The translations under genes were made by a program, and so were the position numbers. 64,000 bases of DNA from Pyrodictiaceae archaeon (GTDB lineage Archaea > Thermoproteota > Thermoprotei_A > Sulfolobales > Pyrodictiaceae): positions 612,880 through 676,879 of the forward strand of contig JALVSY010000007.1 in NCBI GenBank assembly GCA_027036135.1, read 5' to 3'. Position 1 is the first letter of the stretch; every line of letters begins with the position of its first letter. Below, one piece after another: positions 21,156 to 25,227 of the stretch. A model generated the notes under the pieces. It searched no databases and was not told where the DNA came from. It saw only the letters and a list, made by a program, of their open reading frames with translations.

Positions 21156-21890
21156 TCACGAGGCTTGATTCTTATACGTCTGAGAAGCGTATACTTTCTC
21201 GCAGCTCTTCCATCCTAGTAGCACAAGGAGGCGTTGTACCTCCTTAACAGTGGCTTCTAGTTGCTCCATGGGCACCCTGGGTACACCAGCAGCCACTATT
21301 AGTACTCGTCTTGTAGTATCACGTATCATCGTGTAGCGGCTGTCCCGGTGCGGATAAAGGTGCATCACTACCCCACGAGAGTCAACCATTATGGGTACAC
21401 CGCTCTTTATTTTCTCCTCCCTGCCGCCTATCGGTAGGAATACCTCCTCTCCTCTAGAGAGCCTTATCTCGGCAGGAGGATGGAACGAGTCCATATCATA
21501 TATGCCGACAGGGACCATGTACTTTGCAGAGGCAATATTGCCAGCGTCCACGACGGGGTTTATACGCGGCCATCGTCCCCTCAGTGCTCTGCGTACAAGT
21601 GCTTCACTACTAGGCCTAGTCTTGGTCGGGTCAATTCCTATTCTCCAGTAGAAGTCCCTGTAGGCTCGTACAATTGGATCGTCTCGCAGTGATTCAAGGC
21701 TATATCTCTGCCTCAGGTATTGGAGTAGCTCCTCTACCTTACTGTCTAAGGCGCCTGGGTCCAGCTTGCTTACTGGCCTACCACAGGAAGCCGAGTACGC
21801 AACCATGATACCCATTTTAGCCGCGTCATCTCTTACTCGTAGAACTTTCTCTAAGCCGGTGCAAAGAGTGCTTAGACATTCCTCTCCCAA
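21156..21890 (-). CDS. Stand-alone B3/4 domain protein (PheRS editing domain-like)
   Basis: AYRDFYWRIGIDPTK.RPSSEALVRR, INPVVD.GN..S and YPHRDS motifs. Confidence 0.88.
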   Translation of the reverse strand: MGEECLSTLCTGLEKVLRVRDDAAKMGIMVAYSASCGRPVSKLDPGALDSKVEELLQYLRQRYSLESLRDDPIVRAYRDFYWRIGIDPTKTRPSSEALVRRALRGRWPRINPVVDAGNIASAKYMVPVGIYDMDSFHPPAEIRLSRGEEVFLPIGGREEKIKSGVPIMVDSRGVVMHLYPHRDSRYTMIRDTTRRVLIVAAGVPRVPMEQLEATVKEVQRLLVLLGWKSCEKVYASQTYKNQAS

Positions 21891-22054
21891 GGCAGCGGGC
21901 CCGTGGGGAAGAAGAGCATGTATGGTGGGCTAAATGCATGCTTACTACAAGGAGGAACCAGTTTAACCCTGTGAAGGCTGGGAGAGGCAGATGATTAGAG
22001 GAAATGGTAAAAAAGGTATGGGTTTAGGGGCTCCTTAGCTATATGTGTAGCCCC

Positions 22055-22282
22055 TTAGTGTATTAGTTGCCAGACGTTGCCCCATCCGCTCTGTATTCTG
22101 AATATGTCGCCATTGCCCGGTAGGCTAAATCCATAGTATCTTGGGTCTCCGTAACCGAAGGCGTAGTACTTGGGGTCGCCATAGCCTAGGGCTGCTACTA
22201 CTGCGGCTACGGCTGCTACTAGGGCTATCTTGGTCTTGGGATCCATTGCTAGGCGTGCGAGTATCTTCTTTAGAGTCTTCAC
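22055..22282 (-). CDS. 75-aa peptide with hydrophobic segment and tandem GYGDP(K/R)YY repeats
   Basis: GGTGA SD 6 nt before GTG, downstream T-tract, and repeats that differ mainly at synonymous sites. Confidence 0.8.
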   Translation of the reverse strand: MKTLKKILARLAMDPKTKIALVAAVAAVVAALGYGDPKYYAFGYGDPRYYGFSLPGNGDIFRIQSGWGNVWQLIH

Positions 22283-22460
22283 CCCTTCTCACCCTCAGGG
22301 ATTTCTTTTCTTGTCTCTTCGGCCTCTCGGCCATGTATAGAGTAGGGCTAGGTGATTGTGTCACGTCTTTGTAGATGAAAAGGCATATATTGAGAGCGTA
22401 TGAGCCGAGGCGATGAATTAATACCTTATAGGTGCCTTGAGAAGGCTCTAGGGCGGTTAA

Positions 22461-23378
22461 ATGAACCTAGTTGCCTTAGGCATTATGGCCGGTGTTGTAT
22501 TGCTACCAGTGCTGAGAGCCCTCGGTCTGCACAGGGAGGCCTCGGTCCATGCGTCACGGATTCTCATGATACTAGCATTTGTGGTTATATTTCTTGTCGG
22601 GGTATTAGCTGGCGGTGCTATTCGGGCACCGTTTCTTGCTCTAGGTGTTATATTACTCGGCTTAGCTATGTCGATTACGAGTATCTTGGCTAGCTTGTTG
22701 GCTGCGTCTCTGTTGCTAAGGCCGCGTAAGTGGAGCGAAGAGACGAATAAGGAATCTATGGTAGAGGCGAGCCTGGGTGAGACGTTTACTCCGCTCCGGG
22801 CACTTGCAGTGATGGCTCTTGGCTGGGCTCTGGGTCTCTTCTCGCCAAGTCTCTCAAAAGGAGTGTTGGAGCAGGCTCTCTATTACCTTGTCTCTGTCCT
22901 GGTATTTGTAGCTGTGCTCTCGGTCGCGGCTGAGATAGATACAGTGATTCAGAGCACTAGGCTCTTAGGCCTAGGAGCTCTACTAGGCGCACTAACTATG
23001 CTCTCGAGTGGTCTCGCTCTCCTAGTATTCTATCCCTTAACACACATAGAGCCACGAGTACTAGTCGCCATCGGAGCTGCTTCTGGCTGGTATAGCCTAG
23101 TAGGCCCATTACTTACTAACATCAACCCCGTGTATGGCGCTATGGGGTTCCTTGCCAATCTGTTCCGAGAGTCTCTACACATAATTCTCTACCCAGTGAT
23201 TTCTGCGAAGGGATTAGCATTGCCGGGAGTGGCGATGGGCGGCGCTACCTCCATGGATACCGGGTTGCCAGTCATATCCATCTATGGTGATAAGGAATCA
23301 ATGATAGCTGGCATGGTGCAGGGAGTAGTAATAACACTAACTGCTCCCGTAGTCTTATCGATTCTGCTCCCTAGCTAA
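22461..23378 (+). CDS. LysO/DUF340 family exporter
   Basis: GWYSL.G, FLANL.RE and GGATSMDT.LP motifs. Confidence 0.88.
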   Translation: MNLVALGIMAGVVLLPVLRALGLHREASVHASRILMILAFVVIFLVGVLAGGAIRAPFLALGVILLGLAMSITSILASLLAASLLLRPRKWSEETNKESMVEASLGETFTPLRALAVMALGWALGLFSPSLSKGVLEQALYYLVSVLVFVAVLSVAAEIDTVIQSTRLLGLGALLGALTMLSSGLALLVFYPLTHIEPRVLVAIGAASGWYSLVGPLLTNINPVYGAMGFLANLFRESLHIILYPVISAKGLALPGVAMGGATSMDTGLPVISIYGDKESMIAGMVQGVVITLTAPVVLSILLPS

Positions 23379-23450: not shown

Positions 23451-23726
23451 GTGGGTGTTGATCTAGTCTTCGAGCTTCAATACCTGCTCAGCGATGTACT
23501 CGGGGAGGAAATAGTTGTCGAGGGCTATAGCTATAGCGATGAAGGTGTACTCTGCGTAGAGGCGAGGATTCGCGGAGAGCATAGAAGAGCTTGTATTGAG
23601 ATAAAGCAGTGCAAGGCTGTGAAGAGCCCCGGTAAGCGCGGGAAATGCATAGTAAGATTCCTATCATCAAACGAGAAGGCGTTGGAGGAGCTGCGCTCCA
23701 AGCTTGTAGGGGGCGGCAAGGCATGA
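23451..23726 (+). CDS. Small hypothetical protein
   Basis: 91 aa with 4 Cys. ATGA overlap with sua5. Confidence 0.65.
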   Translation: MGVDLVFELQYLLSDVLGEEIVVEGYSYSDEGVLCVEARIRGEHRRACIEIKQCKAVKSPGKRGKCIVRFLSSNEKALEELRSKLVGGGKA

Positions 23727-24385
23727 AGCCAATCATTATACGAATAGACCCTAGTAATCCCTCGGAGAACGAGCTACTGAGAGCAGCCCAGCTTGCTAGG
23801 GATGGAGGCCTAGTGGTCTATCCCACGGACACGGTCTATGGCCTAGGCACTAACCCGTTGATGCCTAGCGCTGTTACCCGGGTCTACCGCGTAAAGGAGA
23901 GACCCATGGATAAGCCACTACCAGTACTAGTATCGAGCATAGAGGCTGCGAAACGCCTAGTCGAGATAAGCCCCGTTGCCGAGTGCTTAGCTAGGAGCCT
24001 ATGGCCGGGAGCAGTAACACTCGTACTCCCAGCGAAACCTATTGCTCCAAGGGAGCTCCATGCAGGGACAGGGAGACTTGGCGTAAGGATGCCGAACCAT
24101 CAAGTAGCGCTAAGACTCATAGAGATGAGTGGAGGAGCACTTGTCGGCACTAGCGCGAATAAGCACGGAAGAGAGAGTCCCCGCACAGCAAGGGAGGTCA
24201 TTGAGCAACTAGACGGTGAGGTAGATGTGGTAGTTGACGCAGGCCCTGCCCCTGGCGGCAGGCCATCAACGGTGGTAGAGATACGAGGTGACGAGATAAG
24301 GCTCGTTCGTGAGGGGCCCGTAGGACTTGGCGCGATAAAACGGCTACTAGTGAAGTGCAGGCAAAGGGTGAGCGCACAAGGCTAA
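23723..24385 (+). CDS. sua5: L-threonylcarbamoyladenylate synthase (YrdC/TsaC domain)
   Basis: YPTDTVYGL, K.RP.DKPL, WPG..T, TSAN and PSTVV motifs. Confidence 0.92.
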   Translation: MKPIIIRIDPSNPSENELLRAAQLARDGGLVVYPTDTVYGLGTNPLMPSAVTRVYRVKERPMDKPLPVLVSSIEAAKRLVEISPVAECLARSLWPGAVTLVLPAKPIAPRELHAGTGRLGVRMPNHQVALRLIEMSGGALVGTSANKHGRESPRTAREVIEQLDGEVDVVVDAGPAPGGRPSTVVEIRGDEIRLVREGPVGLGAIKRLLVKCRQRVSAQG

Positions 24386-24426
24386 AATACACGGAGAATC
24401 TAGGTATTGAATATGGTTGGTTCTCC

Positions 24427-25227
24427 TTGTCTAGGGAACTAGCATTAACTTATCTATCAAGCATAAAGCAAACGGTACGTGAGGCCGAGATAACCGACTA
24501 TATTATGCCGATATGGCTTCCCTACTTGGCCAGTATCCTCGCAGTAATAGGAGGCCTCATTATCTTAGTTTACGCAATTATGCTTAACACGAGTATGCAT
24601 CCGCTACATCACATCTATTATGCTGGCCTACATCAAGTTGAGGTACAGGAAACCAACATTGCGATGGGCTTGGTAGCGCTAATGTCGATAGTAGCCCTAA
24701 TAGGCACTATAATAAATCTCTACGTTATATATAAGTGGATAGCTAGGAGAAATGGCCACTTCTCCCGAGTACAGCGCTTATACTCTGGCGTCATAAGCTT
24801 CCTAGAAGCACTCGGCGTAAGCGACCCCGAGATAGCGAGTATGAAGAACATAGCAGAGGAGGCCAGGTTCCGCGAGTCCGAGAAAAGCGCTGGTCTATGG
24901 CTAATACTTTATATAGTGCTAGGCTTCATAGCCTGGGCTTACATAATGCACTTCCTAACCCGGGACTTCGTGGAGCACGAGTACCGCGAGCAACTCTTCT
25001 TCAAGAACCTAGCCGAGATAGCGAAGAGGAGGAACCTAGTCCTAGAGTTGCCTCGGAGAACAGTACCGGATAGGAACACTGTGCTCTACTTAGTACTGAC
25101 AATAATAACGCTTGGCCTCTTCGGGCTCTACTGGATATACACAGTGACGAGGGACCCCAACGAGCATTTTCTAGAACACCGCGTATTCGAGCAAAGACTA
25201 GTAAGTGTGCTTGAATCAATGCTCTAG
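24427..25227 (+). CDS. DUF4234-like membrane protein
   Basis: LVLTIITLGLFGLYWIY...DPNEHF..H and RRN.HF.R motifs. Confidence 0.75.
   Translation: MSRELALTYLSSIKQTVREAEITDYIMPIWLPYLASILAVIGGLIILVYAIMLNTSMHPLHHIYYAGLHQVEVQETNIAMGLVALMSIVALIGTIINLYVIYKWIARRNGHFSRVQRLYSGVISFLEALGVSDPEIASMKNIAEEARFRESEKSAGLWLILYIVLGFIAWAYIMHFLTRDFVEHEYREQLFFKNLAEIAKRRNLVLELPRRTVPDRNTVLYLVLTIITLGLFGLYWIYTVTRDPNEHFLEHRVFEQRLVSVLESML

Follow-up and report, generated by a model that had tools for sequence, protein, structure and literature searches.

We here describe a small gene within a 64,000-nt stretch of a Pyrodictiaceae archaeon genome (assembly GCA_027036135.1, contig JALVSY010000007.1, positions 612,880 to 676,879), hereafter referred to as the window. 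A 75-codon open reading frame (ORF) at 22055-22282 on the minus strand, recovered from the ORF listing and its translation, specifies a protein of 75 amino acids (aa), and the gene is present as a single copy in the genome. It is followed, after 164 nt and on the same strand, by a gene for a B3_4-domain protein (21156-21890), and it is preceded by a divergent gene for a LysO-like exporter (22461-23378; PF03956, expectation value (E) 2.1e-36). The gap to this divergent neighbour measures 178 nt, rather than the upstream region of about 100 nt given in the first-pass annotation, a reading of the same DNA made from its sequence. Comparisons to relatives indicate that the ORF is a genuine protein-coding gene under purifying selection, with a glycine- and aromatic-rich repeat tail whose unit number varies between close relatives. 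The features of the locus are collected in Table 1.

Table 1. Features of the small gene and its flanks, in window coordinates
Feature	Position	Strand	Evidence
Coding sequence (CDS) of the 75-aa small protein	22055..22282	-	ORF, translation, dN/dS, other-run contigs
Start codon GTG	22282-22280	-	
Stop codon TAA	22057-22055	-	
Basic amphipathic N-terminal helix, residues 1-12, MK-x-L-K/R-K/R...	22247..22282	-	AlphaFold2 (AF2), conservation
14-residue Ala/Val-rich hydrophobic segment, residues 19-32, IALVAAVAAVVAAL	22187..22228	-	hydropathy, AF2
Repeat unit 1, GYGDPKYYAF, residues 33-42	22157..22186	-	alignment
Repeat unit 2, GYGDPRYYGF, residues 43-52, dispensable	22127..22156	-	alignment
Unit 3, PGNGDIFRIQ, residues 55-64	22091..22120	-	alignment
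Unit 4, SGWGNVWQLIH, residues 65-75	22058..22090	-	alignment
Shine-Dalgarno-like GGTGA, 6 nt 5' of start	22289..22293	-	sequence, conservation
Upstream element TACAYGGCCGAGAGGCC with 5-bp G+C stem and GAGA loop (22333-22320)	22320..22337	-	four-genome comparison
TATA-like box AATATATG, ~100 nt 5' of start	22384..22391	-	sequence, conservation; putative promoter role
3' region, imperfect hairpin 22054-22027 and T6 tract 22014-22009	22009..22054	-	

Coding status and selection

The ratio of nonsynonymous to synonymous substitution rates (dN/dS) over codons 2-75 amounts to 0.075 against G001, 0.093 against G002 and 0.220 against G004, three other genomes of the genus, with an overall range of 0.075-0.226 and a synonymous divergence (dS) of 1.18-1.35 against G004. 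These values indicate that purifying selection acts across the orthologues, i.e. beyond the two repeats. In contigs from four other public runs that span the gene, all 10 indels listed fall outside codons 2-75, with none listed at 22055-22280. Among the substitutions listed, the CDS holds at least 11 sites, seven of them synonymous at third positions, three conservative (L73I, I60V and T3S among those listed) and one converting GTG to ATG. The start position is identical in all five loci read, i.e. in the genome of the window (G000), G001, G002, G004 and the metagenome locus L025, with ATG serving as start codon in G001, G004 and L025. A Shine-Dalgarno site precedes the start in all five loci: the GGTGA of the window, already recognized in the first pass, is represented by GGTGA, GGTGG or GGAGGTGG at the matching place in the other four. 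An internal start at M13, which would yield a textbook 20-residue signal peptide, was rejected, as the methionine is missing in G004 and in the distant branch of the family and as the Shine-Dalgarno site precedes M1.

Two alternative frames overlap the gene, one of 79 aa at 22125-22364 (-) and one of 77 aa at 22141-22374 (+), and their openness would be compatible with a chance ORF in an intergenic region. Both translations are of low complexity and rich in Ser, Arg and Leu, and the frames are probably by-products of the Ala/Val codon run. In G004, the same-strand frame has no counterpart of at least 40 aa, and the antisense frame shrinks from 77 to 54 aa. Taken together with the low dN/dS, the frame, start and Shine-Dalgarno site kept in five loci, and the motifs kept by relatives at 42-50% identity, this makes the absence of a gene scarcely credible, the proposal being refuted as far as sequence evidence reaches.

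Repeat units and their variable number

The tail of the protein, residues 33-75, comprises 43 residues, including 11 aromatic residues, 9 Gly, 2 Ser and neither Cys nor Thr, and displays four G-x-G-(D/N) motifs, namely GYGD at positions 33 and 43, GNGD at 56 and GWGN at 66. The ORF, its coordinates, its translation and these four positions agree with the first-pass annotation. Read in all six frames, the 2.2-Mb genome contains 22,629 stop-to-stop frames of at least 40 aa. A single one of them, that of the 75-aa gene, packs four or more G.G[DN] motifs into 40 residues, and the motif density exceeds chance.

Units 1 and 2 are identical in 8 of 10 residues and differ at 10 of 30 bases, with different codons at six of the eight identical residues; these are exactly the six codon pairs listed in the first pass, where they were taken as a sign of selection on the protein rather than of recent slippage. 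For the genome of the window this view stands, the two copies being old and selected. For the genus as a whole it needs to be qualified, since the second copy is dispensable and the number of copies is 1 or 2. Unit 2 is absent in P0003 and in P0010, which is the G004 translation, and present in G001, G002, P0002, L025 and P0008; P0010 holds one GYGD unit, and its close relative P0008 holds two that are identical in protein sequence. Copy numbers of 1 and 2 are accordingly found in both sublineages of the genus (P0003 versus the window; P0010 versus P0008), and P0004 and P0009 carry an extra PGYGQ. This distribution indicates that the second repeat is dispensable and that gains or losses have occurred more than once. 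Joints that would change the repeat number were not seen in the contigs of the four other runs, in which rare variants are dropped.

The last two units are themselves a repeat, as the distant branch of the family makes plain, for example in P0004, where PGFGDISRIN is followed by PGWGDITRIFN. The tail thus repeats a single theme three to four times, each copy consisting of a G-x-G-(D/N) turn and, after it, a short aromatic or aliphatic strand.

In the 11 aligned sequences, M1, K2, L4, A23, A24, A26, P55, D59, G66, W67 and G68 are invariant, and L32-G-Y-G35, Y39, Y40, F42, G56, R62 and I73 are nearly so, in agreement with a nearly invariant LGYGD..YY.F motif. One signature fits all members: a MKAL[KR][KR] start, a single hydrophobic segment, LGYGD..YY.F, two G-D/N-[IV]-x-[RKQ]-[IL] units and a GWG end. 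The distant branch, at 42-50% identity, keeps LGYGD..YY.F, PG.GD[IV].[RK]I and PGWGD[IV].[RK]I. The identities along the protein (Table 2) are lowest in the linker and highest in repeat 1.

Table 2. Identity along the protein, as mean pairwise identity and as identity between the two branches
Region	Mean pairwise	Between branches
Residues 1-12	0.65	0.58
Linker 13-18	0.28	0.12
Hydrophobic segment	0.58	0.52
Repeat 1	0.73	0.62
Residues 53-64	0.52	0.44
Residues 65-75	0.59	0.46

An orphan family of narrow distribution

Orthologues are present in three of the four other genomes of the genus, at 97% (G001), 92% (G002) and 63% (G004) identity; the fourth, G003, shows no orthologue and is only 60% complete. 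Searched against 201 genomes of the order and 351 of the class, the family profile matches four in each case, and all four belong to the same genus. In a sample of 401 genomes of the phylum, which held five other genomes of Pyrodictiaceae and none of the genus, the sole other match was weak and restricted to the hydrophobic stretch (E 0.0018). Among 1.84 billion representative proteins, with no limit on length, the profile retrieved five at E up to 0.001: the small relatives P0003, P0004 and P0005, and two large repeat proteins that are discounted below. A word-indexed search added P0002, P0008, P0009, P0010 and P0011. P0010 is listed at NCBI as hypothetical protein PYJP_07550 of Pyrofollis japonicus, and two genome-contig loci are titled Pyrodictiaceae archaeon; the order-level origin guessed in the first pass is borne out by these names. 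The metagenome scan yielded one close locus alone, and matches in the viral scan were confined to the hydrophobic helix. In total, the family consists of 11 aligned sequences and P0008, arranged in two branches that are 42-50% identical.

Several candidates were rejected as relatives. The Bacteroidales loci L020 and L021 are 13-residue chance motif matches, and the large protein P0006 looks like translated repeat DNA. The 1517-aa metagenome protein P0007 matches through its pre-peptidase C-terminal (PPC) repeats: it carries PPC (PF04151, E 9.6e-11), and the family profile weakly recognizes the strands that open eight PPC repeats (GYSDVDYYKFTL...GTGDV; E 9.4e-5 over 8 stretches). The likeness, GY.D..YY.F.L followed by G.GDV, is a motif-level resemblance only; the tail of the 75-aa protein has half the length of a PPC domain, and PF04151 is not among the matches of any of the 11 members, even at E up to 10.

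Pfam and NCBIfam gave no match for the 75-aa protein at E up to 1, and Pfam run on the 11 members at E up to 10 returned noise only (TMP_2, DUF4179 and an LPXTG anchor; best E 0.031). PADLOC contained no match for the protein, PHROGs gave weak matches only (E 0.023 or weaker) to families without known function, and a sequence profile search of the PDB reached at best E 0.28, on the hydrophobic helix only. Searches of the ESM Atlas with the whole protein and with residues 33-75 returned no usable match. We found no paper on PYJP_07550 or on small proteins of Pyrodictiaceae, and the literature excerpts that name Pyrofollis do not deal with the 75-aa protein. By these comparisons the protein belongs to no known family. 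Apart from a few metagenome relatives, the orphan family has to date been seen solely in a single genus of Pyrofollis-like Pyrodictiaceae, archaea of deep-sea vents.

A further small ORF, encoding 49 aa, lies elsewhere in the same genome (G000:C7:154374-154517 (-), equal to L030:2869-3018 (-)) and has an orthologue at L024:1501-1647 (+), the identity between G000 and G004 being 56% (E 1.8e-6). It displays a similar N-terminal module, i.e. a basic helix, D-P and an Ala/Val hydrophobic segment, but ends in a short tail of another kind. The similarity to the 75-aa protein covers residues 1-31 of the latter, at 42% identity (E 0.008), and Pfam gave no match for the 49-aa ORF.

Predicted architecture and location

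Residues 1-18 carry a net charge of +5, and residues 33-75 a net charge of 0. The basic N-terminal stretch is followed by a short polar linker (residues 13-18) and by residues 19-32, which comprise 14 hydrophobic residues without interruption and in which Kyte-Doolittle means over 11 residues reach 3.10. AF2 models obtained with 6 and with 11 sequences have mean predicted local distance difference test (pLDDT) scores of 52.6 and 55.2. Both contain an N-terminal helix (residues 2-11 or 2-12, pLDDT 55-65) and a helix at 15-31; strands at 49-53, 60-64 and 72-74 are found in the first model only. A prediction of a four-copy complex scored 0.02, i.e. "no answer", which is evidence neither way.

From these features we infer export, topology, anchoring and a beta-sheet as follows. 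The basic N-terminus and the Ala/Val segment of 13-17 residues would bring the protein to the membrane via the general secretory (Sec) pathway, with the N-terminus remaining inside. By the positive-inside rule, positively charged flanks of membrane segments stay on the cytoplasmic side, and it is on account of this rule that the N-terminus is placed inside and the tail outside. The C-terminal 33-44 residues would thereby reside outside the cell membrane, forming three to four units, each consisting of a G-x-G-(D/N) turn and then a short strand (YYAF, IFRIQ, VWQLI), and these units probably come together in a tiny beta-sheet in which Tyr, Trp and Phe abound. Most likely, the protein stays in place as a single-pass membrane protein with its N-terminus in and its C-terminus out, and candidates for binding to the tail are another envelope protein, the surface-layer (S-layer) side of the membrane or a cation at the Asp/Asn turns. 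We judge the chances to be about even that the product is, in this manner, a small envelope protein of an orphan family, exported and most likely anchored, with its units outside. The first-pass annotation had proposed a secreted or processed peptide; of this, the exported or membrane-inserted part is consistent with the basic N-terminus, the hydrophobic segment and the polar Gly/aromatic tail, and the archaeocin or ribosomally synthesized and post-translationally modified peptide (RiPP) part is not upheld (see below).

Several observations weigh against this proposal. Export and topology are predicted solely from charge and hydropathy, and none of the 12 runs listed provides RNA data for the locus. 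The pLDDT of the presumed ectodomain is below 50, and the second AF2 model has a helix where the first has strands. Furthermore, the hydrophobic segment, with its 13-17 residues of which half are Ala, makes a short membrane span and would suit a cleavable signal peptide equally, and small residues occupy positions -3 and -1 before L32 (V-A-A) and before Y34 (A-L-G).

The last points lead to a different fate of the exported protein, in which residues 1 to ~31-33 form a long signal peptide cut by signal peptidase I. A Tyr/Gly-rich peptide of 42-44 residues (32-34 in one-repeat species) would then be released under the S-layer or into the medium, to act as a matrix, adhesive or signalling peptide. 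The n- and h-regions of a Sec/signal peptidase I substrate have their counterparts in a +5 stretch (residues 1-18, unusually long for an n-region) and the 14 hydrophobic residues that follow it (19-32). The h-regions of signal peptides typically comprise 7-15 residues, and the Ala-rich stretch, of 13-17 residues in the family, has the length of such a region. In addition, all 11 sequences have small residues at -3/-1 ahead of the nearly invariant L-G-Y-G-D, and the tail lacks any further hydrophobic segment. However, residues 1-12 are as conserved as the presumed mature part (0.65 versus 0.52-0.73), which is unusual for a discarded n-region; the n-region is 18 residues long; and no polar c-region separates the hydrophobic stretch from the candidate cleavage sites. 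Anchoring is slightly favoured over cleavage because a discarded signal peptide needs no such conservation as that of residues 1-12, and we regard the free peptide as doubtful, though a possibility to be taken seriously.

The subunits of the cannulae of Pyrodictiaceae carry Sec/signal peptidase I signals (PMC12518558). They resemble the 75-aa protein in a positive N-terminus followed by an Ala/Val hydrophobic stretch, and they stem from the same organism family. The mature part of the 75-aa protein would, in contrast, be only 32-44 residues long, its n-region comprises 18 residues and is conserved, and the homology searches with the 75-aa family returned no cannula protein.

Other export signals were compared as well, and neither of the two considered fits the family. 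Class III signal peptides present K/R and then G/A immediately before the hydrophobic stretch, as the site of prepilin peptidase. No G/A is found at -1 in the family; T-K precedes the stretch in the window protein, and I-K, Y-K or P-W in its relatives. Regarding twin-arginine translocation (Tat), R-R occurs in only 2 of 11 sequences (P0005 and P0011), the others having K-K, R-K or K-R, located at least 12 residues ahead of the hydrophobic stretch.

The position of the first GYGD, at the outer end of a putative membrane helix, recalls the selectivity filter of potassium channels, T-V-G-Y-G-D, in which two membrane helices flank a pore helix, and the G-x-G-D turns recall calcium-binding beta-rolls. 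An ion-binding or pore-forming oligomer would agree, at the level of short motifs only, with the nearly invariant A-L-G-Y-G-D directly after the hydrophobic helix and with the Asp or Asn that closes each turn. Nevertheless, the protein has a single hydrophobic segment, with neither a pore helix nor a second helix, the Thr of the channel signature is missing, and the Pfam matches of the 11 members at E up to 10 include no ion-channel or RTX family. The RTX beta-roll is built from tandem GGxGxDxUx nonapeptides, unlike the units of 10-12 residues seen here, where G-x-G-D has no intervening residue. Such an oligomer is therefore most improbable.

Returning to the anchored envelope protein, the closest parallels are offered by small proteins such as bacterial MgrB, AcrZ and KdpF, which cross the membrane once and modulate larger partners within it. 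In common with these, the 75-aa protein has fewer than 80 residues, one hydrophobic helix, an N-terminus placed inside by the positive-inside rule, a short outside tail and a gene located beside a transporter gene. It differs in being archaeal, in lacking any sequence relationship to them and in carrying a Gly/aromatic repeat tail rather than a Cys- or charge-based motif.

A more far-reaching version, which we consider unlikely, is that the tail represents a new minimal extracellular fold, a stack of three to four units to which units are added or from which they are lost in exact 10-residue steps. In an archaeon growing near 100 degrees C, it would be displayed on the membrane or shed from it, and would either bind cations or associate with itself to build a Tyr-rich surface matrix or adhesion layer. 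Control of its synthesis would be exerted via the strictly conserved G+C hairpin in a long 5' leader. As they stand, the data describe a small-protein family that is new, narrow in distribution and familiar in its general kind, with a plausible location.

Hyperthermophilic archaea have hardly been studied for their small proteins, many of which annotation misses. The 75-aa gene offers a clean case, being restricted to a genus, under clear purifying selection and equipped with a short repeat whose copy number varies between close relatives. Should the tail, at 100 degrees C, form a stable mini-fold or bind cations or surfaces, envelope biologists and peptide designers alike would take an interest in it.

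Flanking signals and conserved upstream element

On the 3' side, a TTTTTT tract lies ~41 nt after the stop codon, preceded by the imperfect hairpin, which supports the T-tract terminator of the first-pass annotation. T5-T6 tracts are also located downstream of the stop in G001, G002, G004 and L025, and archaea are known to terminate transcription at oligo-T. A scan for bacterial-type promoters and terminators, the latter with loops of 3-8 nt only, found none, as expected for an archaeon.

On the 5' side, the 17-mer TACAYGGCCGAGAGGCC at 22337-22321, 39-55 nt before the start, constitutes the most conserved 15-nt window in the 570-nt locus, with 14 of 15 columns invariant in four genomes. Between G000 and G004, 16 of its 17 bases agree, as compared to 86 of 178 across the entire upstream region, and L025 keeps the stem in an altered form, CGGCCG-AAAG-CGGCCG. 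The 17-mer occurs once in the window; its 12-mer core has two copies in the genome, the other one unrelated. Folding of the 79-nt leader did not differ significantly from shuffled sequences (z-score -1.11), and Rfam searched with 21700-22700 gave a chance match alone (Chlorobi-1, E 0.41).

The counterpart of the TATA-like box AATATATG in G004 is ATAAATAT. If AATATATG acts as the promoter, the 5' leader would be ~75-80 nt long, and TACAYGGCCGAGAGGCC may then form an RNA hairpin within it. Equally, TACAYGGCCGAGAGGCC may serve as a palindromic binding site for a protein, used in common with the divergent exporter gene, and the AATATATG box, being located in the shared divergent intergenic region, could serve either gene.

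Genomic surroundings

The order of B3_4 gene, small gene and LysO-like gene is kept in all five loci read, all of one genus. In three other genera of the family, represented by nine loci, other genes occupy the 1.3 kb upstream of the B3_4 gene and the small gene has no counterpart there; in four of the nine the LysO-like gene is located on the opposite side of B3_4. In L035-L038, which represent two other genera, it lies downstream of B3_4 on the same strand, as opposed to upstream and divergent in the window. The family profile search detected no homologue of the small protein in the genomes of those other genera. As the placement of the LysO-like gene differs between genera, the small gene sits at a genus-specific rearrangement point.

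These arrangements bear on the idea that the protein is an accessory or regulatory subunit of the LysO-like exporter, comparable to the bacterial small membrane proteins that tune transporters. The two genes are divergent neighbours in five of five loci, and their common intergenic region contains the most conserved non-coding element of the locus. Since all five loci derive from one genus, the conserved order is nonetheless weak evidence, and LysO-like genes occur near B3_4 in two other genera (L035-L038) whose genomes gave no match to the small protein, so that the exporter does not need it. We consider this role quite unlikely.

Further out, housekeeping and transport functions account for the 30 ORFs located from 7.3 to 36.1 kb of the window, among them succinyl-CoA synthetase, a class I tRNA synthetase, Sua5/YrdC, an aldo-keto reductase, PyrB/PyrI and TatA. 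Radical-SAM, YcaO, lanthipeptide-type and peptidase domains were absent from these ORFs, 8 of which have no Pfam match at all. This speaks against the RiPP or pheromone precursor layout suggested in the first pass, in which a conserved leader would be read by enzymes encoded elsewhere and repeated aromatic cores would be modified and cut out. Like RiPP precursors, the gene is short, with a conserved N-terminal part (12 residues) and repeated, core-like C-terminal units of variable number, and the 49-aa ORF with its similar N-terminal module and different tail (E 0.008) could be seen in the same light. In contrast to such precursors, it has no nearby maturation enzyme, and the core offers no Cys, no Thr and only 2 Ser. 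Moreover, a membrane-type hydrophobic segment is inserted between the putative leader and the core, and RiPP leaders are not known to take the form of 14-residue Ala/Val segments of this type. A RiPP or pheromone precursor is accordingly very unlikely.

Two further ORFs of the window were noted on the plus strand. The one at 24355-25227 encodes a 290-aa membrane protein whose sole assignment is a DUF4234 match at its C-terminal end (E 6.6e-9). The other, of 91 aa at 23451-23726, has no Pfam or NCBIfam match and overlaps the annotated start of the Sua5/YrdC-type ORF (23645-24385), which leaves two explanations: a small gene in its own right, or a YrdC start located further downstream.

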